In this document: piece after piece, positions 3,501 through 32,880 of the stretch | Position numbering within the stretch: position 1 is the first letter of the stretch | Layout of the letters: each line of letters opens with the position of its first letter | Assembly (NCBI GenBank): GCA_001724265.1 | Contig: MEDY01000322.1 | Coordinates: forward strand, 1 to 34,364 | Reading direction: 5' to 3' | DNA: 34,364 nucleotides | DNA from: Rhizaria sp. SCN 62-66 | Taxonomy: Eukaryota | Program-made: the position numbers and the translations under genes | The notes under the pieces: model-generated | What the model saw: only the letters and a program-made list of their open reading frames with translations | What the model was told of the DNA's origin: nothing | The model's database searches: none

Positions 3501-3562
3501 CACCGCCGCGGACAAGAGCGCGCGCGCGATGGAAGACGACTGTGAGCTGAGCGACTCCGCCA

Positions 3563-3594
<32 letters not shown>

Positions 3595-3813
3595 AGCGAC
3601 GAGGGTGATCTTGACGATGATGATGACCACGATGACGATGACAACGTTGAGCCTGCGGCAAAGACTGAGACTGCGAGTCATGTTGGCTCCAGCAGTCGCT
3701 TTAAGAAGGCTGTATCGCTTTCACAGTCGCAGATGCCGTCAGAGTCGTTGACACAGATCGTTTCATAGTCCCTGGTTCATCACTTTTCGCGCTCGCAGTC
3801 GCGCTTGCAGACA

Positions 3814-3851
<38 letters not shown>

Positions 3852-4038
3852 CTCTCCCGCACAGTCGCTCCCGCAGTCGAAGACCGGCGCCCATGTGCCT
3901 TTCGTCGTGACCCTCAAGCCGCCGGTGGCGATCACGATGGCCTTTCACACCGCGTCGCTCCCCACTGCGTGCGACGACGGCCAGCAGCAGCAAGACGACG
4001 GTTGTGTCGGGCTGAATCTTCCGACTGCGTCAATGTAA
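553..4038 (+). CDS. Hypothetical Ala/Ser-rich protein (~1,160 aa) with a possible ARM/HEAT-like helical segment and an acidic tract. It has an in-frame TAG at 3766-3768, read as Gln.
   Basis: ORFs 454..3768 and 3805..4038 are in the same frame and separated only by one TAG (..LTQIVS*SLVHHFSRSQSRLQTQTQ..). GC-rich coding style persists to the TAA at 4036-4038 and AT-rich sequence follows. The first in-frame ATG is at 553, so the start is uncertain. The segment LINSLRDASPRRRAAAAQAVAAVAAASPACLLWAARLGLVEPLVLM looks ARM/HEAT-like (inference). Confidence 0.7.
3808..3849 (+). repeat. (CAGACG)n coding microsatellite encoding (Gln-Thr)n
   Basis: A tandem hexamer is visible directly downstream of the in-frame TAG. 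Confidence 0.9.
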
Positions 4039-4130
4039 GCTTCGCTGGGATTGAATCGTCGAGCTCCTCCTTTATTGTTTTAATTTTTAATTTTATTTTT
4101 GTTAGACTAATTAGTTAACGAACAATCGAC

Positions 4131-4165
4131 TAAGCGTATGTTATGTTTAGCATAACATACGCTTA
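4131..4165. repeat. Perfect 15-bp inverted repeat with a 5-nt loop
   Basis: TAAGCGTATGTTATG (4131-4145), loop TTTAG, then CATAACATACGCTTA (4151-4165), the exact reverse complement. Confidence 0.9.
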
Positions 4166-5730
4166 CTCTACATTCCATAAGTATTTGTGATATGTATCCC
4201 GATACTCTTCTTTTTTTTGTGCATGCCATATTATTTTATTTTATGCAAATCTGTGTACATGTCTGGTCCCACTGCTGGTACAGCTGTGGACACATGTATT
4301 CACCTTCAGTACCCAAACTCGTGGCGTACTGTATCATCTTGATTATGTGTACACCTACATCAACCTGGACTGGACAAGTCGTATCCAACTTTCAAGTAAA
4401 CGCCACCACCAACACGCAATGTCAAATAGCAGTGTGCATGTGGTACACTTGCTCTTAAAATGCCGTGCTTCCATCACAACACAAACACCACATCAACGCG
4501 ACAATGCGCAATGTCCACTCGCACAAAAAGGGTGTTGCAGCTGTCCTTGCTGCAACACGTGTCAACACGACTGACACTGACACTATCAGACACTGAACAT
4601 GTTCGTTCGCTGTCATTTTCACAGCCCAGTGCACTCATTAGCATTTGTGTCTGTATATGCGATCCCTTTTGTGGTGTAGTCTGTATCGCACGATAGCGTG
4701 TGTTAAGGTCGTTTTTAGCTCATTTCATTCTGGTTGGGTTTTTTTTTTTGCGCATCATATGTGCTTTTACTCGCTTTTTCCCCTTTATTTTGTGTGCTCT
4801 TCTCTGGAACATTTTATTTTTCTCGCCCGTCATAACCTGAAGTCTCAAGTTCACGCGCGCACAGCTCTTAAACAGCCCCCTTGCTTTTCTTTTCTTTTTC
4901 TTTTTTTCTCCTGGTGTTTTTGAACATTCGTACTCACTTTTGTACTGACTGTATCACCCAAGCTAATCCTTCTCATTCTAGCATTTTTAGTTGTCTCATT
5001 TCGGTATTTGTATGTAAACTCCTCTCGCAAGCCTTTAGTTGGCTTATCACTGAATGTGTTTCCTTTCATCATGTCATCGAATCACATCTCACAAATCGGG
5101 AAGCGAACTGTCAATTCACGACCTGTGCATGCGTCAGCGCAATCGCAAATATACGTACACACTCGTTTGTCTTTGACACGTCTTGACTCTTCCCCCCGCT
5201 GCTCTTTGCATCTGCATCAATTCTATTCATGCACAACGTAATTCTCGTCCTAATACATTCGAAGACTGCGCTACATGACTCATCATCGTTCTCCGTTTGT
5301 TTCGATTCTTCCCGAGCAACATTTGTCCTGAGATTACTTATCTCGATTTAACGATGGCATCAGAGATGTGGAATAAGTGTTTCATTATTATTCAACGACT
5401 CAAGACATACGCTAATGAGTCACTGTGAAGCCGATGCTGAAAACTTGAAGACTGCGTCTGCACTAGTCGTCGATATCATCAACAGGATTGTGGCGGTTCC
5501 GAACAACTTCATCACATGTGTTCATGTCGTCGTGGTGCTCGAACTCATTACGCTTGCGCGCGGCAACTGATCTCAGAGATAAATTCAAAATATAGTTTAT
5601 ACGAAGGTTGAACTTAGCTCTGTATTCCACAGCAAAAAACCCTCCAAAAATAGAAACAAATCATGTTGAATAAAATGTCCCTGGCCTCTGTCATCGTCGC
5701 ACCACCATCTAGTCGAAGCTTGCGCTGAGC

Positions 5731-8700
5731 TCAGTCGCTGTCGCTATCAGTGTCGGCGCCCGTGACGGTGTCGAACGGCGCGAACGCCGCCCGCAGCGCC
5801 GCCGTCGCCCTTTCCTCCTCCTCCTTCTCACTGCCGCCGCTGCCGCCGCTGCTCGCGTCGGTCGCCGCAGCGACGCAGCGGCGCCAGTCGGCGCGCTCGG
5901 GGACTCCCGCGGCCTCGGCCAGCAGCGCGCGCGGCAGCTCCAGCAGCGGCACGCGCGCGATCAGCTCGCTCACCGCGCCCTTGGCGTCGCCGCCCTCGGC
6001 AGCGCCAGCGGGAGCGCCTGTGCCGGAGCCAGTGCCGGAGCCAGCGCCGGCGGCGGTGAGGCTGATGCCCGTGGCGGCAGCGAGCGCCACGTCGCGGTCG
6101 CGTCCGCGCTCGCGGTCGCGCGCGGCCGGCGTCACGGCCCACAGCTGCTCACAGTCGCTGTCGCCCTCCTCCTCATCATCAGCAGCGTCAGCAGCAGCCG
6201 CAGCGTCAGCAGCGTCACCAGCAGCGGCAGCAGCGGCGGCGCCCTGCTGCTGTTGCTTGAGGGCGGCGATCTGGACCTGGGTTGGGAAGCGCCAGTAAAA
6301 GTACGGCGGCAGCTGCGACAGGTCAACCGCACTCGGATTGCTCTCGCCAGCGCCCTGCTGCTACTGTGGCTGCTGTTGCTGCTGTTGGTGCAAGGGTGTA
6401 CTTAGATCGAGCGCCGTGAGCATCTCCGCGATGCGCGCGCCCTGCCCACAGTCGCCGCGCACTCGCACCAGGCCGCGGCGACGCATTTCGCGCGCCACGC
6501 GCGCCGCGAACCCCGCCAGCTCAAAGGGGGCATTTGGACTCCCCGCAACAGCAACGCCGGCGGCGGCAGCGCCGCATCGCAGCGGGAGGCCGAGCGTCTG
6601 CACCTGCATGTGGTGTGTCGAGCGCGTCTTGTAGTAGCGCTCGCAAACCACGGTGCCCAGCCCCTGCGCCGCGTTCATGCCGCGCAGCCCGGCCAGGAAG
6701 CCCTCCAACTCACGCACCAGAGGCTTGACTTCCGCGCCGGGCCCAGTCGCGGCAGCGGCGACTGCGAGGCACGGCACGTGTGCGATGGGCAGCACGAAGG
6801 CATGCGAGCCGTTGATGGGGCCGCGGGGCAGCGCGAGATAACTTTCGTCGGCCACGGCGGCGACCAGGTGCGTCGCCGCGCGCGGGTTCGACAGACAAAA
6901 CCAGCAATCCGCGTCACCGGCCGCCACCGCACGTTCCTTGTCCCCGCGGCCGCCGCTGCTGGCGCGAGCGCGCTGGGCGGTCAAGACGGCGGCGGCCGCG
7001 GCGGCGAGCGAGAGCAGCGACGCCGCGGGCAGCGCGCGCAGCACGGCCGCCACCACGGGCGGCAGCGGCACCGCAGCAGCAGCAGTGCTGCTGTCAGCGG
7101 CGGCCTGCGTGTCAGAAGTTAGGCCGGCGGCCTGACTAATCGCGGCCTCCGCTGCGGCGAGCGCAGACGCGTGCGCGGCGGCGGCGGCGGCGGCGGCCAG
7201 CTCGCGGCTGCGCTCGCGCTCGACCACAGCAGCCACATCCTCCTCCTCAGCAGCGGCGGCATCGGTCGCAGCAGCGGTGGCGGCGCTGTGGATGCCGTTG
7301 CTATTACTATTGTTGTCGGCGCTCGCGTCAGAGGGCGCAAGCGGCAGCCCTGCGGCCGTGGCGGCGGCTGTCTCCCGTTGCAGCGCGCCGGCCAGCAGCG
7401 TCAGCACGCTCGACATCACGAACCGCGTCCGCTGGTGCTGCTGACCGTGGGAGTCACGTGTACCGTGCGTGCCGCTGCTCGAGGGGACGGGCTCGGTCTC
7501 GGGCTCGGCGATGAACTTGGCGTTAACAAGCGCACGCACCACGCGCATCAGCCCGCCCTGGCCCTGGCCCTGGCCCTGTCGCTGCTCACGGTCCCCCCGC
7601 TGCTCGCGGTCGCGCTCGCGCTCACGGTCGCGCTCGGCCTTGACGGGGCACATCCGCACATAGTGTTCGCCGCTGCCGCAGACCACGCACGCGTATCCCG
7701 CCGGCGGCGGCCCGTTATCACGCTCACGGTCACCGCGCTCCCGGTCGCCGCGCTCGCGCTCGCCGCGCTCGCGCTCGCGCGGCTGCTTGTCGGCGGCGCG
7801 CTGCTGCGCGACGGGGCAGTCGCTGATGTAGTGCGCGCCCGTCAGCCCGCACGCGTGGCACGAGTACCCCGCCGGCGGCGCCGCGCCCGGCGGCTGCGGC
7901 GCGCGGCGCTGCTGCTGCTGCTCACGGTCACCACGGTCACCACGGTCCGCACGGTCGCTGTGGCCACGGTCGCTGGACGACTCGGAGTCAGGCCGGCCGC
8001 GCTTCAGACCCCCAGAGCCAGAGCTGCCATCAGCGTTATTGTTGTTGTTGGAGGCGGCGAGGTGACAGTCGCGGATGAAGTGGCTGTTAGCGCCGCAGAG
8101 CCGGCACGCGTAGCCCGGCGGGGGCGGCTTGACTTCCCAGCGGCCCGCCACACGGCTGCCCGTGGCGGCGGCGCGCGCGTCGGCCTCCTCCAGCGACGCG
8201 AAGCGCAGCGCATCCACGCCTTCTTCGTGACCGAGACCGTGGCCGTGGCTGGCAGCGCTCGTGCCAGCGGCGCTTGCAGTGTACGTCGCGGGGGCCAGAG
8301 CGCTGCTGTTGCTGTTGCTGCTGTTTTGACTGATGTTCGTCTGCGCGGGGGCGCTACTTAGAATGGATGTAAGGGGGTATGGCGAGAGCGGCATCGCGGC
8401 CAGCGCGGCGGCCGTCTCGCCGCCGGCGTTGACCACGAAGCCAGAGTTCGCGCACATGGGCGTGATGGAGAACGCCGTGACGTCCTTTTGTTTAGCCGCG
8501 TTGCCCACGGGCGCCATCAAGTAAAGCCGCGTCACGACTGTACTCGTAGTACTTGTGCTGCCGCTGCTGGTGTTGACGATGTTGCGGTAAGGAGGCACGG
8601 CGGTGTAGGTGCCGCGCACGTGCGTGTAAGGGGCGCCCCTTAGACCGGCGTAGGTCCCCCCCGGCGCGTGCATCGACGACGAGATGTGGTACGCAGGCAC

Positions 8701-10125
8701 GACACTTACACTCGCACTTACATTCGTGCCAGCGGGAGCCCCGACACTCTGCGAGACGACGCCACGAAGCATCGGGCAGCCACTCAGCGCAGTCACGGGC
8801 GCAGCCGCAGTGCTCTCGGACGACTCGGCTGAGGAGTCTAAGGGGGTACTTACACTGGGCATGAGCGCGGCCCAGTTGTCTGGCGGCGACGACGACAGGA
8901 ACACGTCGCACACGCCCGCACCAGCGCTCTGACCGCTGTTTTGACCGGCGCCTTGACTGGTGTTTTGATCGAGGGCGGCGACGGCGCCCGTGAGCGCGAA
9001 CAGATCGGCCCGCGTGTAGCCAGACAGAGACAGGGACAGTGTCTGCGCCTGCGCGGGCGGCAGCGCGGCGCCCGAGAGGAAGGCCGCGCGCAGGCCGCAG
9101 GGCAGGATGCGCGCGCCCGCCTTACCCAAGTACAGCAGGTTGGGGGCGAGGGCCACGCCGACGCCGTCCTGCGAGACCGCGTCGGCGCCGCTCCCGCTCG
9201 CGCCACCGCTGCTGCTGCTGCTACTGCTGCTGGTGTAGAGAACTGAGGCGGGGAGGCCGGCCGCGGCAAGAACGGAGAGGGCGGGCCCGTCGCCGCCGTG
9301 GCCGTCGCCGTCGCCGGCGCCTGTTCGAGGGGAAAGATAGAACGAGTCAGGAAAAGATTGATTAGATTAAGCACGCCAATGAGATTACGAGCGAAAATCG
9401 TTTATAAATTCAATTAATTTTGATTTAAAAAAACAGCATGTTTAGTCTGATACAAAATCAATCATATATGACAGAGATACACAATCTAAAAGCTTCATCG
9501 CCTGAAGTACGCGGCACTCGTCATAGCGCAGGCTTGTAGCTGACTATATTCGAGTTGCTTGAGTGTGTGCAGGGACGTACCAAGGATAAAGTAGACCGGA
9601 ATGGGCAGCTTACGCTCGCCGCTCACGAGCGCAGCAAGCGCAGCGCCCGCACTCGCACTCGACGCGCCACTGCTAGCGCTCGCATTAGCATTGATGTTGG
9701 GTGAAGGTGCAAAGAAGGATCCGACGCAGAAGGCGCAGGCGAACTTGGCCTGGGCAAGGGCACGCGTAAGACGGGCTTCAAGCAGGTCGAAGCGGCCACC
9801 GACGTCGCCGAATACCAGACTGCGTTGCGGCGGCGTGCGCGCGTGGGCGGGCAAGTCGTGAGAAAGTGAAGGGAATCGAAGAGAAAGTTAGACAGATGAA
9901 TAGCGAAAGTGAAATAGGAGTTATGAAAACAAAGACATGGTATATCCAGACCATAAGTGTTGTTTGATGATACATTTGATCATCACCGCATTAAGTCTTC
10001 ATCACCGCTCGCAAGCGAGCTGCATGAGAACGATTGCGTGAGTCAACGATCAAGAGCAGTTGCAGGCGCGATTGTCAGTAGACGTACACCTTCACAGGCG
10101 CTGTGGCCGGGGCCGTAGTTGCCAT
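5731..10125 (-). CDS. CWF19L1: CWF19-like protein 1 (Drn1 family), 1,288 aa: N-terminal metallophosphatase-like domain, three CCHC zinc knuckles, and CwfJ C-terminal domains 1 and 2. Model: complement(join(5731..9320,9581..9819,10088..10125)), with an in-frame TAG at 6361-6363.
   Basis: The spliced N-terminus MATTAPATAPVKVLVFGDVGGRFDLL..FCVGSFF..PIPVYFILG and LAPNLLYLGKAG match the CWF19L1 phosphatase-like domain. CwfJ_C_1 is seen as DCWFCLSNP..HLV..YLALPRGP..H..VLPIAH..ER..HMQVQ. After the TAG come PYFYW and a CwfJ_C_2-like segment, LPRALLAEAAGVPERADWRRC..EEE..LRAAFAPFD. The gene ends at TGA 5731-5733, and exon phases are consistent. Confidence 0.93.
9321..9580 (-). other. Spliceosomal intron 2 of CWF19L1 (260 nt)
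   Basis: GTACGT donor, AT-rich body, CTAAT branch-like motif, pyrimidine tract and ACAG acceptor. The phase-1 join is in frame with ORF 6361..9156. Confidence 0.88.
9820..10087 (-). other. Spliceosomal intron 1 of CWF19L1 (268 nt)
   Basis: GTACGT donor and GCAG acceptor. Removal restores ..PVKV-LVFGDV. Confidence 0.8.
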
Positions 10126-10704
10126 AGCGGAAGACTAAACAGCAAGGATGTTATTAGAACCTCAACTACAGTGCAAAACAGAAAGAGATGGAAGAGAGCG
10201 AGAGCCTAGATCGGGGAAGCGAGGAGAGAGGACACCAACGGACAAGTCGAAACAGCGTGAGTGCGTACAGCCTGATGATGAGGTCCGCAAGACAAATAAC
10301 TGAAAAGGTTACGCATTTAGAACGTATTAATCGTCGATTCAAAAGGAATTCCCTATCGACGGAAGTTGATCTAACCTTGCATTGCGAACTCAATGCCCCC
10401 CTCGGCCCACCACCAGCGCCTGGCGGGAGCTGGCTGTCGACCAGAACGCCGAGCCACCACGCATTATCGCCTTCAACTCCCCTCAACCCACCGTCACTGG
10501 CTCTCCCGTTCATCATCCACGTTGAATTATCTCTTATCTCACTGATCCCTTTATTATCTTTGTCCCGCAGCAAACTACCCGGCCCTGCATATCCCGCACT
10601 TCCAGCCTCCCACTTCTCTCGATCGAGCCGCTCCCTGCCCCCGCCAGCCCGGCCTAACCCCCGTTCGCCCGCTTCCCGCGCCCTCCCGCGCTCGTTCCCG
10701 CCCC
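10126..10704. promoter_or_regulatory. Short divergent (head-to-head) intergenic region, likely a bidirectional promoter plus 5' UTRs
   Basis: The CWF19L1 ATG (10125, -) and the methyltransferase ATG (10705, +) face away from each other, 579 nt apart. No specific motif was identified. Confidence 0.45.
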
Positions 10705-13606
10705 ATGTCCGCGCGCGTGAACGACATCTGGACGCGCAAGGCGCGCTCGCTGGGCTTCCCTTCCCGCGCCGTGTTCAAGCTCATCGAGGCGCAACAGAAG
10801 TTCCGCCTGCTGCGTCCCGGGCAGCGCGTGCTTGACCTGGGCTGCTCGCCTGGGTCCTGGACGCGCCTCGCCGCGCGCTCTGTGGGGCGCAAGGGCTACG
10901 TGCTGGGCATAGACCTCACGCCGCTGGAGCACGACGAGGTGCGCGCCCTGGCCGCCGAGGTCGCGCCGTTGCGCATCGGCCAGGCGCCCCCCGCCGACCA
11001 AAGCAGCGCTGGCGCCAACAACAGCAATAAGCGCGGCGTGTCGAGTCTGTTCGGCAACGCGGCCGCGAGCGCCAAGGTGGGCGGCGCGGCCAAGGGCGAC
11101 GACGACGCCGCCGCCGCTGTGAGCATGGACGCCTACCTCAGCAAGCTCGAGCAGAAGCGAGTCCTCGCTGAGCAGCAGCAAGAGGAGCTAGAGGGGCAAG
11201 AACGAGAGCTTGAGCAAGACGGCGTTAGCACGAGCAGCGACGCTGACGCCGACGCCATCATGAACGACTCCACTCAAACAGCTGACGTCAACACTGCTGC
11301 ACCTGCTGCAACTTCTGTTGAGACGGCGACTCCTGGCGGCGGCAGCGGCCGCGCGTTGCTTAAGGCCGAGGCGCGGCTGGCCCGCTCGCGCGCGCCCGTG
11401 CGGCTGCTGTACGGCGACGTGACCGAGTGGCGGCCCGACGCGGTGCACCGGCAGGCCTTCGATGTCGTGCTCAGCGACATGGCGCCCAAAACCACCGGGC
11501 TGCCGTCGGAGGACGCGGCGGCCTCTGCCGAGCTCTGCCACGCCGTGCTCGACCTCTGTCCGCGCGTCATGAAGCCGCCCGTGCGCAAGTGGGTCACTTA
11601 CAACGCTGCTAGCGCTGACGCTGACGCCAGCGCCGCTGCCGGCAGCGCGAGCGCTCTCAGTGGACGCGACGGCAGTGACGCGGAGACTGAGGCTGACGCG
11701 AATGCGACTGCCGCTGCTGCTGGTGCTGCTGCTGGTGCTAAGAGCGCCAACGACAAGGGCGAGGTCGAGGAGGACGACGACGAGCGCGGCCTCCGCGACA
11801 TTGGCGCCTTCGCCCGCGCCGCCCCCTCGAGCGCCGGCGCCGCAGCCGACGCGAAGGTAAGTCGCGTGTCGGCGGCGACGGACCTGTACTCTGCAACGCT
11901 GCAGCGGCGGCTGGCCAAGGCCGGGCTCAGCGATGAGGACGCCGCCGCCGTCGCGGCCTCCGTGCGCGCCGCGCCAGAGGAAGTCACCGAGGTCGACGTC
12001 GCGGTTCTCAAAAAATCGCTCCGCACCGCCGCCAAGATCAGCGTCAACAAGCACAACTCGCGCTCTAGCGCCGCCGCGCCCGAGGGCGAGACCGCAGCGG
12101 CCGAGACGGCGAGCGAGCGGCGGCTGGAGACGTACTACCGCGGCGCGCTGCTCATGAAGGTCTTCCAGGGCACCGACTTCGCGCCGCTGCTTAAGCGTGT
12201 TAGGGTACGTGACATGCGCACTTGCCACGCGACGCACCGCGTGGAATGACTTGATTTGACGTCCATGTTCTGGTTATTAATGCGACTGTCATGTGACTAT
12301 GCTTGAAATAATTGCATGTTCTTTGCCTAAAATCCTATCTCACATCATCCTAACTTATCTATCTTTTTTTCATCCTCACTGATTTCTCTCCTCGACCCAC
12401 TGCTCTCGACAGGAGATGTTTGTGAGCGTCAAGTCGTTCAAGCCCGAATCATCGCGCTCGGAGTCGGTCGAAATCTTCCTCTTCGCCAAGGGCCTCCGCG
12501 TCCAGAGCAACAACAACAACCGCAACAATCTCTCTGACGGCGGCGACGCGAACATGAACGACCCCAGCGGCGGCCCCAACAGCAGCAGCGGCGGAGGCAG
12601 CGGCAGCGGCAGCCGGCTGGTGGGCCGCGCGAACGCGGGCTACATGACCGCCAGCGGCTTCGTGGCGCCCGCGGGCGGGTTGGGCGGCCTCCCCGTCGGC
12701 CCCGGCCCCGTCGGCCGCCGCCTGCAGCGCTCCCCGGTGCCCACCGGCTACTACGACAGCGACGACGCAGACGTCGCCGCCGCGCGCACGCGGCTCGGCG
12801 GCTATAACGGCGACGACAGCGAGGCGCATGCGCAGACGCAGGCGCAGGGGCGGCTTGACTTCGAGGGCATGAGCGCGGTGATGCGGCAGAACCTGGCGCT
12901 GGGTGAGAGCGCGTACTTTGACACCGTCGACGACAGCGTGCGCAACAACGACACCGGCCGCGGCGGCCGCAGCTACGCCAGTCGAGCCAGCCCTATCCCT
13001 AGCCCCAGCAACAGCAACAGCAACACTAAGACTCGCGATGGCAGCGGCGTGAGCGTGAGCTTCGGCACCGGCACCGTCACCGTCCCCGCCACCAAGTCCA
13101 CCGCTGCCGCTGCCGCTGCCTCTGCCTCTGCTGAGGACGCCGCAGTCGACGCCGAGCTGGCCGCGCTGGAGGCCGCCGAGACCCGCGCCCGCGCGCGCGC
13201 TGCCGCGAGCGCCGCCTTCGCCGACGAGGACGACGACGATGACTACCTTCCCCCCAGCAGCGGCAATAGCTCTGGCTCTGGCACTGGCAGCGGCAACAGC
13301 GCTGCGGAGCGCGTGGCGCGACTGCGCGCGCTGACGGGCCTGTCGCTGTCGCAGCCGGTCGCGGCGGCCGACGCGGCGGCCGCGGCCGCGGCCTTCAAGG
13401 AGGAGGGAATGTGGTTCGCGCGCCAGGTCTCGGTGCTGCGCGACGTGCCGCGCGTCGACATGGTCGGCGCGCTGGGCATCGACGACGATGAGGACGAGGA
13501 CGACGCCGCTGGCGCGGTGAAGAGGGTGAAGAAGACCGCGACTGCGGCGGCCGGCAGCGGCGTGATCAAGAAGAGGCGCCGCAGCAGCGTGCTCGGCGAC
13601 GAGTGA
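10705..13606 (+). CDS. MRM2: FtsJ/RlmE-family rRNA 2'-O-methyltransferase, MRM2-like, ~897 aa with long low-complexity insertions. Model: join(10705..12204,12413..13606).
   Basis: Motifs: D.WTRKARSLGFPSRAVFKLIE, VLDLGCSPGSWT (SAM binding), GIDL, GDV, FDVVLSDMAPKTTG, LLMKVFQG and, in exon 2, FVSVKSFKPESSRSESVEIFLFAKG. Together they give the full K-D-K-E tetrad. SDMAP-TTG is the RlmE/MRM2 type rather than the Trm7/Spb1 DGAP type. The gene ends at TGA. The true start may lie upstream, since there is an acceptor-like site at 10570. Confidence 0.88.
12205..12412 (+). other. Spliceosomal intron in the FtsJ/MRM2-like gene (208 nt)
   Basis: AGG|GTACGT donor, AT-rich body with CTAAC/CTGAT, pyrimidine tract and ACAG|GAG acceptor. 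The phase-0 join gives KRVR-EMFVSVKSFKP. Confidence 0.9.
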
Positions 13607-14014
13607 GCGTGCGGACAGTCGTTAAAAGATGTCATCAAGCACTGCAAAAGGACTTTTGTATCAGAGCTGAGGTGACGATGCTGGAGGTTGAGTGTATTTA
13701 TAGTATTATTTATCATCACAATCTGTGGATTTGGTCATGGTTTCAATAAATTAACCTAGTTTTGAAATCAAACAAGTGTATTACATCAAAATCTGTGTGA
13801 AAAACAAATTGGATGTAGGTTTCCAGTACGGTACGAACATGTAACCGTTAAGGAAAAATCAACTCAGCAATTTTGCTAAATTTTGAGTTAAAGGAAATTG
13901 TAGGTAAATCAACGAAGTGAATCATCTAAGTATTGTGAATTGTGATTCTAATTATGATTGAATGATGTAAATAATGAGTGTTATGCTGTTACAGCACTCC
14001 TGCACTGTTGTTGC

Positions 14015-21277: not shown

Positions 21278-22701
21278 GGCGTGATGTGTGCAAAAAGGGT
21301 GTGTTAGTGGGGAAAGAGGTGCGCGGGCGCACGCAGGAGCGCCGGAAGGGCTGGTTAGTCAGCAACGGCTGAGCGCCTGGAAAGGTCTGCGCTCGGAAGA
21401 AACAAGGAAGACGAATGACGGGAAACAGCAAATGTAAAAAAGAAATATGTTCATGCTTAAATTATGTCAACCCGCCTAAATTGTCAATGACGGTCATTGC
21501 TCCGAGAAATTCCTCACCAAAAACAGTATCATTGGGTTAATACAACTCCGTTTTCCTTCCCACGGTTGTCATCGGTGATGGCCATGTTTGTGGTGTGTAA
21601 GAGTCGATTCAAAAACGTCGTCGTTGTCACGTTGGTGAGTGTCATGATTGCGTTTTTGATGTCGATGAAGATGTTCGGTGGTGTTTTTCTATTTGTAGGA
21701 GCTGGTATTGCCCTGTTTCTTCAGCGCCCTCCTTCAACATCATTATTACAGGTCCGCGGTTTGGCAACATGTGAGTTGGCGGTATTGTCAGCGATCCAGT
21801 CATGTCCCGGCCCGGCACTGCCCGTTGCCCGCAGGTTTGCTCAACAGCAAACGGCGCACTACCGCCGGCTCGGCGACGACCGTTGCTGTCACGGTGGCGG
21901 GGCCAGGGCCTGTCCCCGCGCTTAGGCTGGCCTCGGTGCACGACAACGCAGGCAGCGGCGGCGGCAGTAGCAACAACAGCGGCGGTGTTGTTGGTGTCGT
22001 TGGTGGCGGCCACATGAGTGCGCCGGGCAGTGCGCGCGTGAGTGCACGGCTTACGCCCGCAATGGCGGATGATCTAGAGGCCGGGCTGCCGAGTCTCCGC
22101 AATAAGACAGCGACGAACTTGTTATGGCACACGGTAACGAGTCTGCTTCTACTGCTGCTGTTGCTGCAGGGAACGCGCGCAGCGGGGATAAAAGCGCGCG
22201 TGGTGGCGTCCATGTCAGTGTAACTTCCAATGCGCCTGCGCATGCGGCACTGGCGACTGAGACGCCTCGGGGCCGAGTTAGTCTCGTTAGTTTGTTTGTT
22301 CGGCACTTTCTTTGTTACTTTAGTACGCGCGTCCTCAGTGAAAAAAAAATATTCGTTGTATGTCGTTATTTGTTGACTCATTTGTACTCTTTATTGTAGT
22401 TTTGCGGTCCGATAAAAGGTGAGTTAGCGTTCACACATAACAGACCTGAGCATATTTTTTCTTACCGTTACTAGTTAAGAAGCGTAAACTTCAGGTTTTT
22501 CTTCTGATTACTAGATATTTCGAGAAGCCACACGTTCTAGTATTGGCTTTGTTTGACGTTACTGATGCGATGACACTCGTCATGTTTGAATCGCGCTCTA
22601 AACTTACACTATAACTTCCCTGACTCTGTTGTCGTTATGAGTTACAGGGAATATCGACGCAGTCGTGCGCATAGACTTGCTGTCTCCACGTACTCTCTCG
22701 C

Positions 22702-25700
22702 TCAACTCAGGAAAAGCCTCTTGAATTCCGCTGTGCGAAACACTTCGAACTCCTTCGCTGTGTCTTTGCTGTTTGCAAAATACTCCGCCACTGCCCGCCG
22801 CTTTGACTGAGCAATTGCGTTGAACGCATCACGCACGCGCTTTGCACGCCGCTCAGTCCGCAAACGCGCGTAGTCACTTGGAGATGGAAAGAGGTTCTTT
22901 TGCAAGCCGTGACGCTTTGAACATTGAGAGACGTGTGTGTGCATTTCAGCCATGCCGTTCGTAACAACGTTAAAACACACGCCGCAAAAGCAGTGGTCAT
23001 ATGATCCTGTGTTGCACGAGTCGTCGTCCTGCTTCCGTTCGTTGTGAATGCACGACACAGCTGCGCAGCCTTCCCAGTCAATGACAAACCGCCGGCACGA
23101 AGGCTTGGGGCAGCGGTCAAGCAGGGCCTCGCGAACTGTAGCAATTTCCTTGGCATGCTGCTGCTCAAACACGGTTGAACGGGCAAACTCGGGATCACCC
23201 ATAGGGTAAGTGCACTTGCACGAAACGCAGCGAAAGTCTTTCCCTTTTATCGAGGCCTCTGTTTAAAAAATATTAATAGTACAGTGTACAGATAATGACA
23301 TGGACATTAAAGAAAACCAATGTGAGAAATTACCACAAATGCGTTTGCTTTTGGATTAAAACACAAATCACTCATATAGGTTATAGAACCAACGTTTTTG
23401 TTTAATGGTGCACAAATAAATATTTTGTTTGACGTACTGTTATCAATGAGATTTGTCGCGAGTTGAACCTCTGAACACTTGGTTGCAGGGCACTTGACAT
23501 ACTTGACTTCCTTTTGCGCAGCAAGAAAGTCGTCGCGAGACTTTGTAAGCATCGCGTGTATGTCGTCTTTGGAAAGTGCGGCCCATGGCACGTCACGTAA
23601 CTGGTATGGCTTCTTGCAGACGCCGCAGTGGCATCCGTCACGCTTGATGTTGGCAACAGCTGCCGAGAGGCAATCAACGCACACAACATGGTTGCACTTG
23701 ATGGGCGCAATGCCAACGTTAAAGCGAGTGATTGTGTCGCCGCAGACAATGCAGCTGTCGGGAGCAACAACGTTCAAGATGTTGCTTGGAGGTTGGTCGA
23801 CATAGTTCTCGGCTGTTCCTGACATTAAAGCAACAAAATCATCAACCTGGCTTTGAGTTCCAGAAAGATAAAACACTTTGTTGAGTAATGATCTTTCATT
23901 CACAGCTGCAGTGACGCTTGTAACGTCTACAGCAGCTTTGAGGACATCAACAGGAATATCATAAACTGACTCAAATTTGACATCAACACACTCGTAAGAA
24001 AGCACTTTCTCTTCAAAAGAGAGCACAGCAGCGCGCACGCGCTCGCACCGGTATGCGTTGCCGTAGAAGTAAACATGTCCTGATTGCGCACACAACTTGC
24101 CCCAGCACCTTTCGCTAGCATCACCACCGTTGCTGAAGCTGCCAACGGTGCCAGTAGTAATATCTGACGTAAAACCCTCGCCGTGTTGACCAAACAGAGC
24201 CGCGAGATGGGCACGCGCGGTCGGACCAGTCATGCGGGAGAGCGCATCGGGACGAGAAGTTGAGATTCTATGCTTGATAAAAGAGAATGTGTTGTGGAAC
24301 GCTTCTTGAGCGCGCATTGCTGCGTGCTCTCCTCCAACCATCACATTAATCTAGTACCGACGCAATTGAGTGCACCAGCTGTCCGAAACGCCAACCTGAC
24401 TCCGAACTCTCATGATATCAAGAGCCTGCTTCAGAAGATCGCACATGTATGACCCCACAGCATGACCGACATCTGGCGGCAACTCCACTGTCATACACAC
24501 CATGTCGCGATACTCAGTCACGTTTTCACCCCACAGTGCTTTGCGATCAAGACTATCTGGGACGAGACTTTCTTCAGTATCAAAAAAGAACAAATCCTCC
24601 TTATCTTTGTGTGTCCGGCCGTACCCGTACATTATTGGTACATCAGACAGCGTAGGATGGCTTGAATAGTAGGCTGATTCCGAGGGCACGCCCCACGTAA
24701 AGCGAGTGCATTTGCGCACGAAAATCTCAGAGGATGTGTAAAAGTCACCATGCTTAACGCATGTAGGAATCATCATTGGTTCTACGTATTTCGATTCATA
24801 AACAGATTTGATAGCTTTAGCATCCGAGTTAGAAGTGCAAAGAACCACGTCATGCACACGTCCTTCTGTGCCTGGGATTCGGGTGACAGAACGCGAGACC
24901 TGAGGCTCCAGTGAAGACAAAAACTGTGGTAGCAATAGGTGTTGCACGCCGCTCTGAGTTTCACCGTTGCACGATGAGGTATTGATGAAGACTGCTGCTG
25001 TTTTAGCGTCTTCGCCAAGCAGCAAGGTCTCTGCCACAAGACCTGCTCCACAGTGCAACGTTGTGCCACAGCCCAGGTCAAAGCAGTAGATCTCTTTCTC
25101 GATGTACCTTAGCGCTTTGACCATTACAGACCTCAGTCCCTCATCAATTAGGCGATTGGGATGCATTGCTCCCAGATAGCGAATATAATTCGCACCAAGA
25201 GAGTAGACACCTTGCCCGCTAGAGTTGTTGTTACAGTTCAATTTGTCTTCCAACTCCGCCTTTGACCCGAAGACTGCGCGAATGATTCCCGTTGAGTAAG
25301 GATTGTCTTCCACAAATATACTCTTCGGGTTGTTTTGGGTGCCCTTAGCCTCGTAGTCACGGAACTCGGTGCCGGCAAGGTTTTTAGCAATTGAGGTAAT
25401 TGTGTCGACAGTCTTGCCGGCGGCGGCCCTCAGTGCATGAACCCAAATTCTAGCGTCAACAGCGTTAAAGCTCGACACAATATCACGTTCAGCCGCGCTA
25501 GCAATCTCAGTAGCCTCTGAAGCGTCCCTAAAAAGGACACCCACCGTCTTCCGCAGATGCCAAAAACACATTAGTAACCTCACTGAGTTCTTGGTGTTAT
25601 TTATGCCATTGCGGTGCTGCTGCGCCAGGAGGGGGTTTTCGGGCTCTGCATCTGTCATGGCGGCCGAAAGCTCATTGCACGCATCAGTCTCGAGCGGGAT

Positions 25701-27974
25701 AATCGCATCAGCCTCCGCGCGCGTTGCAGTCTTTGCGGCACTAAGCGTGCTGAGTCCAGCCAACCGCGCAAAGTTTGCAGACTTGGGCACCACAGCAACA
25801 CTCTGAGGCGACGCAGCGGTTCCGACAGCGGAGGCGGCAGCGGACACAGCCAAACTGTACGCATCGAACGCCTTCTCAGCACGGTTCTTAGCGGAATGAA
25901 TCTTGATCCGAAAGACGATGACAGCATTTTCGAGTTTTTGCAACATGAGGTCGTTGCACGTGTGCGCTCGCAGCGCTAAATGGCAGAGACTGGGAATAAA
26001 CACAGGATTGGCGGAGTTGTTACGCCAGCGTCCTGCATCGAGCTCTAAGCGATCATGCATGGCTCCTCGCTCAGACGCCTGTTCAAAAATCAGCCCGGGC
26101 ACTGCAGCTGCGATCGCGTTCAGGCCAGCGTCATCACTCGGGTTGTCAATAAGTGACAAGAGATGACAGACCAGCACATGTGGTGACACACGCGCGGGGG
26201 ACAACACCGGAAGTGCCAAAGGAGGAGTTTCGGAATCATCGTCGGAATTCTTATACGGTAAAGGCGCCACCGGAGTCAGGGCAAATGCTGTCATCGGCTC
26301 ATCGCCGAACGGCAGCAGCTGCTTTGACGCCGTGCAGGTGCTCACAGAGGGCATCCACACTTGGCCTCGCTTAGGGGACAGCCACTCCAATACAGCTGCA
26401 CGACGAGCATTCTGGAGTCGCGCAATTGCCGCCTCGGCGCCGGGTTTAGGGTGATTAATGTCAAGCTGAAGCATGAACGCAGTGTCATCAAGGCTCAAAA
26501 AACTTACACGCCCAGTTGCGGCGGGATGCGCCCACACCGCAGGCACGCCTGCAACCGAGGGCTGCTTGAGCAGCGGGAGCAGCAGCGGCGTGAAGGCGCC
26601 GCAAGCACCAGCTGCGCTGTGCAGCTGTGTCGTAGTAGTATCTTCAGGCAGGAGCGGAGTCGTTTGAAGCCGTGCAATTACGGGATCAAGACAGCGACGC
26701 AGAAGCTGCAGTGCGCGGCGCTGGCGCTGACTGAGATGAGTGAACTCTGGACCGCTCTTGGGAACATCAAGAAGCAAGCTGAGGATGATCGTGAGAAGTT
26801 CGCTGATGACGCCAAAGCGCACCGTGCTTGAAGAAAACAGCGGAGTGAGTGAGTGCTCGATCCAAAGACCGAATGCGGGTGCGCTGGAAATGAGCTCTAC
26901 AACTGTCTTGGAGTTACCAGTCGCACTTGTAGTGGGATTGAGATGGAACTCCCGTTCAGCAAAGGCGTTCACATCAGCAGCCAGCGCATGTGCTAGCAAC
27001 AATCCCAGAGTGAAAACGCAATAGCTACTGTCGTCATGATGCGGTCCAGGCTGGATGATATTCATAGCGCGCGCTTCCCGATGAATGCCCTCGAAAAATC
27101 GAGAGCAGAACATTTGGTGATTGACTAAAGGAGTCGTCGCGTCCACAATGGAGTGGATTTTTGCGGGACGCGTGGGGGCACGCATGGCAAAGAAGGCGCA
27201 GAGCGCGAGGGACCATTGGCGCTCAGTGTCGGTAGCGGCAAAACTGGCGGCGACGACGGGCACTGACGCGTAATCTAATGTCACAAGAGGACCAACGATA
27301 GAGTCATCAGTGCGTGTAACACCTGCAAGCCAGAGTAATAGTGAAACGTACTCGGGTGAACGCATGGTGTTGAGGTTCTTCTTGGTGTATGCCACGACCA
27401 TTTGCGGCGTGACTTTACTCACATTAGTCACACTCTCTGCGGTGACGTCATTCTCGGCGTTGTAGCAGATCGACAGAAACGTCATTGTGCGGCAGTTCGC
27501 ATAGTTGACGCGCGTGAGCTGCATCAACGCAACTGCAAAATCGATGGCGCCCAGCGCTACGCATAACCGCAGTGCACGGGTGAGGGCTTCCAGAGCAGCG
27601 CCGCGCAGGGCGTGGCAGACTGAGAGCGATGCATCATCATCGTCTTTGGGCAGCGAAACAGCTGACGAGAAGATGCTGCGAACGGCGGCAATGCGCTCCT
27701 TTAGGGACATGCTCACGGTCTGGGGGAAGAGCTCAATAAAAGCCATGTTCCACCATTGCGCTGGAAAATTCTTTGCGTAAGCGATGTTTTCTGGCTTCAG
27801 GGCAAAGTTTAACCACGAAACAAGGTGCGTTGTCACTAGCTCTTGGACTATCTCGACGTGACAGTTCGCAGGGGAGTAGGCAAGTTGGATCTCGAGAGTT
27901 TGCAGCCGAATAAGAAGGTGCCACAAATAATGATATGCAGAAGCACAGGGCGGCATTGTGCTGACTCTGAGCAC
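22702..27974 (-). CDS. Large RBR (RING1-IBR-RING2) E3 ubiquitin ligase-like protein. Model: complement(join(22702..23258,23438..>27974)), with an in-frame TAG at 24351-24353. The 5' end is uncertain (first ATG at 27956).
   Basis: RING1: CIVC..CNHVVCVDC..CGVC. IBR-like: KCPATKC..(intron)..FRCVSC. RING2: RCPKPSC..EGCAAVSC..CFCGVC..H.HVSQC, with a putative catalytic Cys. ORFs 24351..27974 and 23307..24344 are in frame across one TAG. The gene ends at TGA 22702-22704. Confidence 0.82.
23259..23437 (-). other. Spliceosomal intron in the RBR gene (179 nt)
   Basis: A|GTACGT donor, AT-rich body and TTTTTTAAACAG acceptor. The phase-1 join gives NLIDN-K-ASIKGKDFRCVSC, in frame with ORF 22702..23202. 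Confidence 0.8.
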
Positions 27975-28575
27975 TTGCTAAAATAAATGTGCGGCGACTT
28001 CTTTGCGGCCGGAGGGTCTTTAGTAGGAAGTCGAAACACGAGTCAATGGCACGTGAAGTCCAAAGAATTTGGGATGAACAGTTTGATTGAAATAACCGGC
28101 AAAAAAATAACAAAAAAGGGGCGCTTTTGGAGAACATTTATATGTTTAAAAAAAAACAGTAATCTTTCATTCGACGATCTAGATCTGCCTCAGGAGTTTC
28201 TTGGACCTTTGACATGAGGAATATTACAACCTGCTGTTGCCACTTGAATACCATGTTGAAATGACCGTGACCATGAAGAATCATGTGAACGATGTTATTG
28301 TGTATTTGCTCGAGGCGTGTCATCAAATGCAGTACAAAACTGCCCAGACATTGGTAAACCGTAATTCTAATGTAACTAATCTTATCTAGTGGTATAAAAC
28401 ATTCATACAGCTAATATAAGCATTCACTTGTCATAGTGCTTGATAAAAACGGCGATTTGTCACCTAACTCGTTGACGCGCACTCTGGCAGTGAGGTCTGC
28501 AGGCCAGTCAGCCCCCCGCTCGATGCAAGTCGCTCGCGGCCACGACTCCGCGCCACTCAGAGGCGCTGGCGCGGC

Positions 28576-29110
28576 TCACTCGTAGCCCGGCGGCTGGTGC
28601 TGCAGCAGCAGCGCGCGCACGCGGTCTTCGAGCGCAGGCGGCGGCGGCGCGGCCGGCGCAGCAAGCGCGATCGCAGTGGTGTTGGAGCCGCCGCGGCCTT
28701 CGGCTCTGTCGCCTGCGCTATAATCGAGCCCGTGGTCAGGGTCGTGATCGGGGCCGTGGTCAGGGCCCAGCGAGGGCAGCGGCAGCATCTCCAGCTCCCC
28801 TGCGCGCGCAGAGCCTGGAGAGGGCGCGGAAAGTGGAGAGGTCGGCGCGCGGACCGGAGAGGCCGGGACGAGAAGGGGCGACTCCGCCGTCTCCGCGGCT
28901 GAAACCGGAGAGGTCTGCGCCCCTCCAGCGCCAGTGCGCGAAGCTGAGGGCTGCGCGGGCAGCGAGTCCGGACTCTGTCCGTGACTGTAGCCGTCGCAGC
29001 CGTCGCCGTAGCTGTTGTCGCCGAGGCTGTGGCCCGCACTGCCGCTGCCGCTGCCGCCGCCGCTGCCGCCGCCGGGACTGGGACTGGGGCTGCGGCAGTG
29101 GTGGTAGGGC

Positions 29111-29142
<32 letters not shown>

Positions 29143-32100
29143 TTGTTGTTCAGAGGAATCGCCATTCGCAGCGTTGGTGCTGTCGCCGTCGAAACTAAGC
29201 CGCATCGATGGCGGCTTAAGTTCTTCGTCCTCGCCCTCATCACCCTGCTGCGGCTTTGCTGCCGCACTGCCACTGCAACTGTGGCTGCTGGTGTGGCTGC
29301 CACGGCTGCTCCCGACGCTGAGGCCGTCTGCCTCCGAGTCCGTCGCCGCAGCGGCCGCCTCAGAACCGCCACCGAGCCCCGCACCGCCGCGGGGGATGCC
29401 CTGCAGCGTCGACGCAGACTGCAGCGGCGACTGCCGGTCCTGCTGCTGCTGCTGCTGCCTCTGCTTGCGGTGCTGGGCGTAGGCCGGCGAGGATGCCGAA
29501 GACGATGACGGCGACGGCGTCGGTGGGTCGTATAAATACATGTCCCCATCCCCATCCTTGCCGCAGTCCTTGCTCTTGCTCCCATCCGGACCGTGACTTT
29601 GGCCGTGGCCCTCGCGGCCGCGGTCGCGGGGCGGGCTGGGACTGAGGCTCACGGTCACTGACACGGCCGGGCGCAGCCGCGCTGGAGCCGCGGCGGGCGC
29701 AGCGCTGCCAGCAGCAGTGGCGGCAGCAGCAGTAGAACAAGGGGTCGCGCTGGCACCAGCGCGGTGGGGAGAGCCTGTCACGGCGGCGGCGAGCGCGGCG
29801 GCGGCGGCTGCTGGGGAAAACGCCCTGGGCCGGGACTTGGAGCCGCCGCCGCCGCTCGCACTGGCCGCCGCGGCCGAGCTTGCACTCGGATTGCCAGGCG
29901 CAGTCGCACGCGCCCGGGGACTAGCCCGGAGGCTGGTCTTGGCTGCAGCGGCAGTGGTCGCAGCAGGGGCGGCGGCGGCGGCGGTGCTGCTAGCCATGGA
30001 CTGTGGACTCTTGTCTGTGCTCTTGCGAACGCTCTGCGTCTTGATCTTGCTCTGTGCGCCCATGCTCGCTGCGCCGCTGAACGACGCCGCCGCCGACCGC
30101 AGCGGCGACGCGGACGGGGACGCGGACGGAGACACGGAGGAGTTGAGCGAGATGACGCTGACGTCGTCGTCGGCCATGCACGCCGCGCTTAGATGCTGGC
30201 GCGGGGTACTTAGATCCGGGCTCACGGGGGGACTTAGACGCTCGCTGGTCGCCTTGGTCTTGGCGGCCTCGGCCTCCGCAGCGCTGGCGTAGACGCGGGT
30301 GCGCGTGATGACCACGGCCTTGCCGCCGCCGCCGAAGCCGCCGCCGCCGAAGCTGGTGGCGTCCGGGTCAGATCCGTCGCCGTCGTCATTGTTGTTCGCG
30401 TGGGTGGTGTTGTTACGATTGTTGCTACTGGTGTGTCCGTCGTCGTCGTCTGCGTCAGTGTCGGAGTCTGAGAGGTAGAGGCTGGGCTCCGTGTCGATAC
30501 CCAGCACCTCGGTCGGCGCGGCAGCAGGTGCGGTTGCAGCGGCAGCGGCGGTGCGGTCAGCGGGCACAGCGGCCGCGCCATTGGCGGCGACCACGGGCAG
30601 CTGGGGCAGCCGTGGCGTCGACCCCAGCCCGGGACCCGCGGCGTCCGCGGCGGCGGCGTCTCCGACGTCGCTGCGGCCGCGGGCAGCAACTGTGGGCGCA
30701 GAAGCGACCGCGGGCGCCGCAGCGGCAGATGGCACCGCGGCGACTGTGGGCGCGGGGCCGGGGCCCAGACTGGGCCGGCTGAAGCGCGAGACTGAGCGTG
30801 GAGCAGACCGGTCAACAGCAGCAGTTGCAGCAGCAGTCGTCGCGGTTTCGATACCGCGAGCAGTGCCGCGGCTGGGGCTGGGACTGAAGCTCGCCCGGGC
30901 CCGGGGCTGGGGCTGAGGCTGGGGCCGAGGCTGGGGCTGGGGCTAAGGCCGGGGGTTCGCGGCGACAGCGACGCTCGCGGCGGCACTAGAGGCGCTGCCG
31001 AGGTTGGTGTGGGCGCCTGTGCCCGCGCTGCTGGGGCGGGGCCGGGAGCGGGACCGGGCGAGGAACTGAGACTGCTGAGACTGCTGAGATTGCGAGAGCG
31101 AGGGCGAGTGCAAATGGGCGTGGGCAGGGGAAGGGGGGGGACGCGCGCTACGTGGCGTTGCAAGGCCCTTAGACGAGGTGGCGGCAAGCCCCTTAGACTC
31201 GTCGGACTTGAACTCCACACCAGCAGCAGCAGCAGCAGCAGCACCAGGCACGCGCCCCTTGGACTGCGCGCGCTCCCCCCTAGAGGACATCAGAAACTCC
31301 TGAGCACAACTCCCCGCACCCGCACTCGCGCTCGCGCTCGCGCTCGCGCTCGCAGCTGCAGCCGCCGTTGCAGTCGCTGGATCATGTGCATGTGATTGCG
31401 CCTGCGCCCGTGCCTGGGACTGGGCCTGAGCCTGTAACTGTGACTCTGGTTGCGGCTGAGAGGCGGCCGCGCGCGGCGGCGGCGACTGCGGCCGCAGCAC
31501 GGGGATGCGCGACGGCGACATCGCCCGGTCGCGCTCGCGGTCGCGGTCACTGGATGCGTCGTTACCGCCACGGTTCTGGGTTTGCGGCGGACGCTGTGGC
31601 TGCGAATGTGACTGCAATGCAGCCTCAGTCTACGCCCGCGCCTTCGCCTGAGGCTTGGCCTGGGGCCTGGCCTGCGGCTTCGCCTGCATCGGCGCCGGCC
31701 GCGGGCTGGGACCGGGGCTGTGCGCAGCGCGAGAGCTAGCGCCAGAGCCAGAGCCAGAGCTCGGGCGGGCGCGGCCGGCGGCGCCAGGGCCAGTGATGTC
31801 GTAGCGGCTACGCGGCGTGGGGGGCAGTGCAGGCGCAGGCGCGGCAGCAGCGGCAGCGGCGGCGGCGGCGGCTGCTGCTGCGGCGGCGGCGGCGGCAGCG
31901 GCAGCCTCAGCCTTCCTGTTGGCCTCGGACGCGGCCTCCGCCTTGGCGACTGCGGCCGCTGCAGCCGCAGTCGCCGCCGCCGCCGCCGCCGCCGCAGCAG
32001 CCTCGGCAGCAACGGCCACGGCGGCGGCCTCGGCCTCAGCCTGTGCCTTGGCCTCGGACGCGGCGGCCGCCGCGGAGGCCGCGGCGGCGGCGGCGGCCCC

Positions 32101-32836
32101 CGCGGCAGCGGCGGCCTGCGCCTGCGCCTGCGCCTCAGCCTGGGCCTGGGCCTGGGCCTGGGCCTGGGCCTTGGCTTTGTTCTGTGCCACTGCATTCGCA
32201 GCGACAGTGGCAGAGGCGGGGCGAGGCCGCGGGCTGAAGCCTCGGCCGGAGTGACCGTGGGCCGCTGTTGCGGGCGACTGAGAGCGCAGCGCAGTGCGGG
32301 GCGAGTGCGAACGCACGGCTGAGCCGAAAGCAGTCTTTTGGGCAGGGGTCGGGACCGCGACTGAGCCTGCGGCTGCCCTCGTGTAAGAAGTAGTATTGGT
32401 GCTGCTGTTGTTGTTATTGTTGTTTTGTGAGGCTGCAGCGTCGAGCTCGCGGCTTAACTTCCGCGCGACGTCCGTCTGCGCCTCCTTAGACAGCGCCGCC
32501 CCCTTAGACGACGAGGGAGACAGCGCACGCGTGGCAGCGCTACCGAGCCCTTTAGACGCGGCAGCGTCCCCCTTAGACTGCGAGGCCTCAGCACCGCGAG
32601 CGCCCGCGCCCGCGCCGACGCTCGCGCTCGCGGCAACGGGAGACGGAGCTGAGGTCGCGACCGCGACAGGGGAATCAGCCGCAGACGCGGACGCGGTCGC
32701 AGCTGCGGCGTTTGGAGCGCCCGGCACGCGGGCGCCCGCAGCAACGGAGCCGGGGCGCGGGCTAGCCAGCGGCAGCGGCAGTGGCGGCCGGCGCTGCGAG
32801 TGCGCGTTTGACGGTGACGGCGAGGGCGCAGGCGCA

Positions 32837-32880
<44 letters not shown>

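Follow-up and report, generated by a model that had tools for sequence, protein, structure and literature searches.

Nuclear genetic codes that uncouple UAG from UAA have been reported from a handful of lineages, of which Iotanema, exLh, Scotinosphaera and a few ciliates are named in PMC11687900. According to the accounts in PMC11687900 and PMC5304391, UAG is read as glutamine, with UAA kept as a stop, in Iotanema spirale, Protocruzia tuzeti and two lines of phyllopharyngean ciliates, as leucine in the rhizarian exLh, and as serine in Scotinosphaera. Both UAA and UAG (UAR) are read as glutamine (NCBI table 6) in many ciliates, hexamitin diplomonads, Dasycladales, Cladophorales, Streblomastix and Amoeboaphelidium protococcarum, which are among the cases covered by PMC11687900 and PMC6299283. 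Here we describe a eukaryotic contig of 34,364 bases (MEDY01000322.1; referred to below, over its whole length, as the window) in which TAG codons lie inside the reading frames of most genes and UAG is probably a rare sense codon, most likely for glutamine, with UAA and UGA still acting as stops. UAG as glutamine with UAA and UGA stops is the assignment that NCBI once listed as table 15.

For the fornicate Iotanema spirale, the transcriptome study of Panek et al. (2017, PMC5304391) gives 204 UAGs spread over 126 genes and a code that retains UAA and UGA as stops; the GTS motif of the release factor eRF1 is described as changed in this organism (PMC9161772). The window resembles Iotanema in having in-frame UAG in most genes, in the lack of TAG among the ends of its six genes (in Iotanema UAG is never a terminator), in keeping UAA as a stop, and in the residue, which context suggests to be glutamine. 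However, Iotanema is an anaerobic gut flagellate, whereas the window is GC-rich, has rarer UAGs (6 in 9423 codons), uses TGA as the commoner stop (4 of 6 genes), and encodes an MRM2-like methyltransferase. The phyllopharyngean ciliates and Protocruzia tuzeti are given as 27.4-53.6% GC, with UAA as the main stop and in-frame UAG in 78-91% of genes (PMC11687900). As in these ciliates, only UAG appears to be reassigned, to glutamine, and a high share of genes carries it (here five of six). In contrast, the window is 63% GC, with most genes at 70-80%, and has introns of 179 and 208 nucleotides. Nothing specific to ciliates was seen in the window, in which no dedicated test of lineage was made.

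The UAR codes are also alike in that a stop is read as glutamine, probably via a mutated tRNA-Gln, but there UAA is glutamine as well and UGA is the sole stop, whereas two genes of the window end at TAA. The codes of exLh and Scotinosphaera share the uncoupling of UAG from UAA and differ in the residue, leucine and serine respectively, where context in the window points to glutamine. In the full-text literature, mostly open-access and without supplements, no account was found of a eukaryote from wastewater or bioreactors in which UAG is reassigned. The window probably represents a known kind of code in a new occurrence and in an unusual, GC-rich setting.

Six in-frame TAG codons are present in five of the six genes. 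In the contexts given here an asterisk marks the TAG. The one forward-strand codon (3766-3768) is codon 1108 of gene 1, in the context IVS*SLV, and 90 codons without TAA or TGA follow it. The remaining five lie on the reverse strand. The TAG at 6361-6363 falls in a CAG tract of a CwfJ-family gene (QQQQQQPQ*QQ) and is followed by 209 codons free of TAA and TGA; that at 15962-15964 falls in a CAG tract of gene 3 (QQQQLQQ*QQQQ) and is followed by 648. Codon 1202 of a RING-finger gene (24351-24353; RRY*INV) is followed by 304 codons to an intron and then by a 184-codon second exon, again without TAA or TGA. Gene 5 carries two: one at 30943-30945, at a Q/R position of a Pro-Gln/Pro-Arg repeat (RP*PQPQPRPQ), with 788 such codons behind it, and one at 31630-31632 (KARA*TEA), with 228. 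The gene 5 frame holds no TAA or TGA over 1929 codons. With TAG read through, the five open reading frames (ORFs) extend over 445-4038 on the forward strand and over 5731-9366, 14015-21358, 23307-28019 and 28576-34362 on the reverse strand, and under the standard code they break exactly at the TAGs. A seventh TAG in the frame of the RING-finger gene (27978-27980, reverse strand) lies in low-GC sequence seven codons upstream of the first ATG; it probably belongs to the 5' untranslated region and was excluded from the coding count.

UAG does not end these genes, and coding runs on in frame past all six TAGs, a conclusion that is well supported by codon usage and composition. The eight coding segments comprise 9423 in-frame codons with six TAG, no TAA and no TGA, and the other five frames of the same genes contain TAA and TGA at 0.25-5.4% per codon. 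Each post-TAG segment was scored in all six frames by a codon model built from the sequence that precedes the TAGs in the other genes. In all six segments the best score fell to the frame that continues the upstream ORF, at levels like those of pre-TAG parts; in four intergenic controls all 24 frame scores were -0.59 or lower. In the 150 nucleotides before and after each TAG, GC content is 0.51-0.80. Past the final stops, by contrast, it falls from 0.65-0.75 to 0.32-0.40, within 150 nucleotides for gene 1, the CwfJ-family gene, an FtsJ-type gene and gene 3, and within 300 nucleotides for gene 5. In gene 1 it stays at 0.59-0.67 for 270 nucleotides past TAG 3766 and is 0.30 right behind TAA 4036; in gene 3 it drops at TAA 14015 and not at TAG 15962. 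Since the TAGs lie inside genes that clearly continue beyond them, the organism most likely translates UAG.

The length of the open runs adds to this in three genes. Taking for each gene the most lenient TAA plus TGA rate among its five other frames, the run after the TAG is beyond chance in gene 3 (P 0.0017), the RING-finger gene (P 0.0007) and gene 5 (P 0.0002). In the CwfJ-family gene the run is without significance, and there the case for continued coding comes from homology. The frame antisense to this gene (5674-8832, forward strand) is itself nearly devoid of TAA and TGA, at 0.25% per codon, with TAGs as its only interruptions, which shows how little a long open frame proves by itself in DNA so rich in GC.

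Judged by alignment with homologues, continuous coding is confirmed across two of the six TAGs, those at 6361 and 24351. The CwfJ-family ORF carries the Pfam domain CwfJ_C_1 before TAG 6361 (E 1.3e-17), and a 475-residue protein, P0002, aligns with it on both sides of the TAG (E 6e-47, 36% identity). Blocks conserved between the two include CWFCLSNPRAATHLV and THHMQVQ before the TAG and LPxYxxWRFP, ARDRERGRxRD, LPRAxxAEAAGVPE and FAPxD after it. When the piece after the TAG was searched by itself under the standard code (BLASTP), it matched P0004 (E 6e-8) and P0003 (E 3e-6) at their C-terminal ends; both proteins bear CwfJ_C_2 (PF04676) in precomputed Pfam annotation. Pfam called no family in this piece at E<=10, CwfJ_C_2 included.

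A complete HMMER search with the RING-finger gene against 1.84 billion representative proteins gave six matches, two of which are the window's own gene, split by standard-code calling: P0001 ends at TAG 24351 and P0008 begins 12 residues past it. P0009 (1506 residues, E 1e-36), P0010 (E 8e-36) and P0011 (E 8e-30) each span the TAG, which is query residue 383, in one stretch. The alignment has no gap at the TAG, an invariant valine follows five residues on, and conserved blocks lie on both sides. Downstream is a RING-type finger whose Cys/His columns are invariant in all five sequences. Pfam places its RING matches below threshold (E 0.02-0.03; scores near 15 bits, where the cutoffs are 25-27) and finds no IBR in either exon. 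The invariant Cys/His pattern indicates a RING-type finger of an unnamed family. A structure predicted for 687 residues around the TAG from the five-sequence alignment had a mean predicted local distance difference test score of 45, and below 50 around residue 383, and was unusable as evidence. The family (22702-25499 in the window, and P0009-P0012) was found only on metagenome contigs, of up to 172 kb (ENA, Logan, JGI/IMG), and the N-terminal part of P0009, ahead of the shared region, looks by eye like a DEAH-type helicase.

Searches on the other segments gave little. The only homologue found across TAG 3766 was the window's own gene call, P0017. Pfam returned no family for the post-TAG segments of genes 1 and 3 and one chance-level match for gene 5. 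P0002 had no usable match in the Protein Atlas. Scans of metagenome contigs with P0001 and P0002 gave 53 and 594 pattern matches, and a scan of genome contigs with P0001 gave 30, among which no relative was confirmed; a scan of viral contigs with P0001 gave no pattern match. An earlier note, made from the letters of this DNA, had located the six TAGs, with long same-frame coding after each, three of them in glutamine-type repeats, and had seen neither a frameshift nor an internal TGA or TAA nor a gene ending at TAG. All of this agrees with our results. Its placement of a CwfJ_C_2 domain and of an RBR module behind two of the TAGs does not hold as Pfam calls; what stands in their place are the BLASTP matches to PF04676-bearing proteins and the sub-threshold RING.

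The observed ends of the genes support TAA and TGA as terminators, placed at sharp drops in GC content. Genes 1 and 3 end at TAA, the CwfJ-family, FtsJ-type and RING-finger genes and gene 5 end at TGA, and none of the six ends at TAG, though six genes are too small a sample to extend this to the genome. Reading on beyond TAA would add 31 AT-rich codons before a TGA in gene 3 and more than 69 in gene 1, where the 69 codons read contain no in-frame TGA. In addition, the dinucleotide GC directly follows the stop in all six cases, as TAA-GC twice and as TGA-GC four times; with their flanks these terminators lie at 4036-4043, 5726-5733, 13604-13611, 14010-14017, 22697-22704 and 28571-28578. The frequency of this dinucleotide in the 3' flanks is 0.06, which gives P 5e-8 for six of six, and it may be a termination-context signal of the organism.

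Together, we consider that for this contig UAG is a rare sense codon, most likely for glutamine, with UAA and UGA still stops, and we put the probability of this reading at roughly 0.7. The claim of the earlier note that UAG has passed from stop to glutamine thus stands in part: codon usage at all six TAGs and homology at two indicate that UAG does not terminate, TAA and TGA do terminate, and the identity of the residue comes from context. Several observations weigh against the reading. All of the evidence comes from one contig, and the case for UAA as a stop consists of two terminators. TAG is scarce in frame, with six occurrences in 9423 codons against 340 CAG and 77 CAA. In gene 1 (P 0.3) and in the CwfJ-family gene (P 0.6), the length left open behind the TAG is compatible with chance. 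Nonsense mutations arising at random by single-base change would, at this codon usage, produce TAG in 61-66% of cases, and six of six by chance has P 0.05-0.08, so that the exclusive occurrence of TAG is by itself weak evidence. The homologue column at TAG 24351 holds H/C/K/N, and TAG 6361 lies in an unconserved insert of the homologue alignment; neither favours a particular residue. Among the RNA pieces listed (assembled contigs, 5450-25440), none bridges a TAG. Finally, the base directly after the in-frame TAGs is C, C, C, A, A and T and never G, which suits readthrough. C directly after a stop codon favours readthrough.

This last point belongs to the main rival, an ambiguous code in which the standard assignment is kept and UAG is a leaky or context-dependent stop, read through by near-cognate tRNA-Gln(CUG) in these genes and perhaps terminating elsewhere. 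The rarity of TAG in frame fits such a code, as does the absence after every TAG of the GC found behind all six terminators, and stop readthrough by near-cognate tRNA-Gln in organisms with the standard code, with UAG decoded as glutamine and with C or A after the codon, is among the cases documented in PMC13192750. However, systems of that kind usually yield a minor product at few genes, whereas here conserved domains of most genes lie behind UAG, and five of the six genes would depend on readthrough for their conserved C-terminal parts, such as the CwfJ C-terminus and the RING domain. Moreover, TAG terminates none of the six genes, and the share of genes with an in-frame TAG is like that given above for lineages with reassigned UAG (PMC11687900). 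We regard leaky termination as unlikely.

If UAG is a sense codon, it could specify another residue, such as Leu, Ser, Glu, Lys or Tyr. None of the aligned columns shows a conserved glutamine, three of the six TAGs have no glutamine context, and codes with UAG as leucine or serine exist (PMC11687900). Against these stand the repeats. The TAGs at 6361 and 15962 interrupt pure CAG tracts, and that at 30943 occupies a Q/R position of the Pro-Gln/Pro-Arg repeat. At least three of the six neighbouring residues are glutamine for two of the six TAGs and for 24% of the 416 glutamine codons, a proportion that is at most 4.2% for any other residue; among residues one step from TAG it is 2.9% for Lys, 2.1% for Glu, 2.0% for Leu, 1.6% for Ser and 0% for Tyr and Trp. 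TAG is also a single transition from CAG. The homologue columns are uninformative, and it is the repeat context that favours glutamine. UAG is probably glutamine, as its context suggests, and another residue is quite improbable.

Translation of UAG as glutamine presupposes that the TAGs reach the ribosome, which in-frame splicing or RNA editing (U to C) would prevent. The genes do have introns, in-frame GT..AG pairs span each TAG (39-214 per site), and no RNA contig listed lies across one. Nonetheless, these pairs are at chance level, and a plausible donor with a YAG acceptor occurs at three sites only (6361, 24351 and 15962), which leaves three sites without a plausible candidate. The two introns that can be read in the window have a GC content of 0.29 and 0.44 and GTACGT donors, in contrast to the surroundings of the TAGs at 0.43-0.8, where no 100-nucleotide window within 250 nucleotides of any TAG falls below 0.43. 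The earlier note had raised the splicing out of the TAGs as an alternative. At 6361 and 24351 the candidates would remove blocks conserved in homologues, and the alignment at 24351 is ungapped, which argues against it; at 15962 candidates do exist, with a GC content of 0.73-0.77. Introns that remove the TAGs are unlikely. Poly(A) RNA pieces lie at 8323-8598, at 20177-20441 and at 14657-15206, the last downstream of TAG 15962. The differences in that RNA run largely repeat those of another run of the same study, X4, and so look like strain differences rather than editing. Joints listed in the comparison with other runs were considered as introns and rejected, having sides of 19-24 letters in repeats. 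Taken as a whole, removal of the TAGs from the RNA appears very improbable.

That the TAGs arose as nonsense mutations in genes undergoing decay, represent minority alleles or stem from errors of assembly is hardly credible. The high share of TAG among random nonsense mutations and the position of two sites in repeat tracts are compatible with such an origin. However, the genes show no frameshift and no TAA or TGA in frame, codon usage is intact after every TAG, and five of six neighbouring genes are affected. Assembly error had been named in the earlier note as a possible cause. We compared independently assembled contigs from other runs over 5450-25440, a stretch outside which 3766, 30943 and 31630 lie. 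A contig of another study (X3) covers 5515-7161 with no differences and confirms TAG 6361, and a contig of a third study (X4) covers 23140-25440 with no differences and confirms TAG 24351, so each of the two checkable sites is unchanged in a contig of another study. The X3 piece over 24351 differs at three unlocated positions, and confirmation at this site comes from X4 only. No difference was reported at 6361, 15962 or 24351, with 15962 lying outside the coverage of the DNA pieces listed.

A UAR code such as that of Amoeboaphelidium or the hexamitins, with in-frame TAA too rare to show in GC-rich genes, is scarcely credible either: only about 1.4 in-frame TAA are expected from the 77 CAA at the TAG:CAG ratio (our arithmetic), so that their absence is uninformative on UAR versus UAG, and the habitat of Amoeboaphelidium, an algal-pond parasite, is not unlike the labels of the runs that hold the window, but the TAAs that end genes 1 and 3 coincide exactly with the fall in GC content from 0.65 to 0.32, both share the GC context of the four TGA terminators, and reading on to a TGA would append the AT-rich codons described above.

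The probable reassignment of UAG alone is set in a window with a marked alternation of composition, in which stretches of 40-47% GC separate stretches of 65-80%. The latter are long open frames whose low-complexity protein products abound in Ala, Ser, Gln and Gly. The RING-finger gene, at about 50% GC, differs from the other genes, most of which are at 70-80%. The window or part of it is present in 12 public run entries from seven studies, with at least half of the sampled words in four of them, and the labels of these runs are bioreactor, wastewater, activated-sludge and microbial-fuel-cell metagenomes. No Rfam family matched the window at gathering thresholds, and no telomere-like heptamer repeats, which would have pointed towards coccidian genomes, were found in it. 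For the placement of the organism, aphelids such as Amoeboaphelidium are at most a tentative lead.

Gene 1 (607-4038, forward strand) has no assigned function. Its start is taken from the database gene call P0017, which stops at TAG 3766, and it ends in TAA-GC at 4036. ARAGORN calls a 90-nucleotide tRNA-Ala(GGC) at 2662-2751 on the reverse strand, inside the GC-rich coding part of this gene, which is probably a false call. The CwfJ-family gene (5731-9366, reverse strand; 5' end provisional) encodes three zf-CCHC_2 knuckles and CwfJ_C_1 according to Pfam and ends in TGA-GC at 5731. Gene 3 (14015-21280, reverse strand) encodes a long low-complexity protein and ends in TAA-GC at 14015. It includes an aquaporin-like stretch with NPS and NPA boxes (17309-18421, reverse strand), a weak resemblance for which the Pfam matches, MIP at 24.2 bits (cutoff 25) and PHO4 at 24 bits (cutoff 33.7), are both below threshold. 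Between gene 3 and the RING-finger gene, the low-GC spacer contains an island of 0.65 GC (21900-22200) with ORFs on both strands, which may be a small exon or gene. Gene 5 (28576-34362, reverse strand) encodes a low-complexity protein, ends in TGA-GC at 28576 and is open at the window edge.

The two remaining genes have introns. The gene without a TAG (10705-13606, forward strand) was identified by Pfam as encoding an FtsJ/RlmE-type, MRM2-like methyltransferase, with exons at 10705-12204 and 12413-13606 and a TGA-GC end. Its 208-nucleotide intron, read from the sequence (12205-12412; GTACGT...ACAG, GC 0.44), joins the two halves of an FtsJ domain that carries long low-complexity inserts. The Protein Atlas, with family-level matches only, assigns it to the mitochondrial rRNA methyltransferase 2 (RlmE/MRM2) type with a score of 0.94. 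This hints weakly at a mitochondrial ribosome, in contrast to the mitosome-bearing caviomonads. The RING-finger gene (22702-27956, reverse strand) has exon 1 at 23438-27956 and exon 2 at 22702-23258, which ends in TGA-GC, and the 179-nucleotide intron between them (23259-23437; GTACGT...AACAG, GC 0.29) joins the exons in frame. The product of exon 2 resembles the C-terminus of P0009. The donor GTACGT is common to both readable introns, whose GC content is far below that of the exons. Because two spliceosomal introns can be read, the window is nuclear DNA of a eukaryote.

Reading of UAG as glutamine would fall to a cognate tRNA-Gln whose CUA anticodon is a single base change away from that of tRNA-Gln(CUG), together with an eRF1 that has lost or weakened recognition of UAG. 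Within the window there is no eRF1 gene, and the doubtful tRNA-Ala(GGC) is the sole tRNA call. Such an anticodon would pair with UAG and not with UAA. This is the mechanism argued for Iotanema spirale and exLh in PMC5304391 and PMC9161772. More tentatively, and at somewhat less than even odds, we suggest that the window comes from an undescribed GC-rich, non-ciliate eukaryote of engineered water systems that uncoupled UAG from UAA independently, reads UAG as glutamine, and sets its UAA and UGA stops apart by a GC that strictly follows them, a mark that may aid the release factor in distinguishing real stops from sense UAGs.

In public protein collections the genes of the window are cut at the TAGs by standard-code callers, as seen in P0001 and P0008 (within 23307-27956) and in P0017 (within 607-3768). 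Metagenome catalogues therefore contain this organism's proteins in systematically truncated or split form. If UAG is indeed glutamine here, the organism would provide a new natural pair of a tRNA-Gln(CUA) and a UAG-blind eRF1. Reassignment of UAG in genes of 70-80% GC would not be explicable by AT-driven codon capture, and ideas on the capture of stop codons could be tested on a GC-rich case whose long genes are rich in Gln and Ala.

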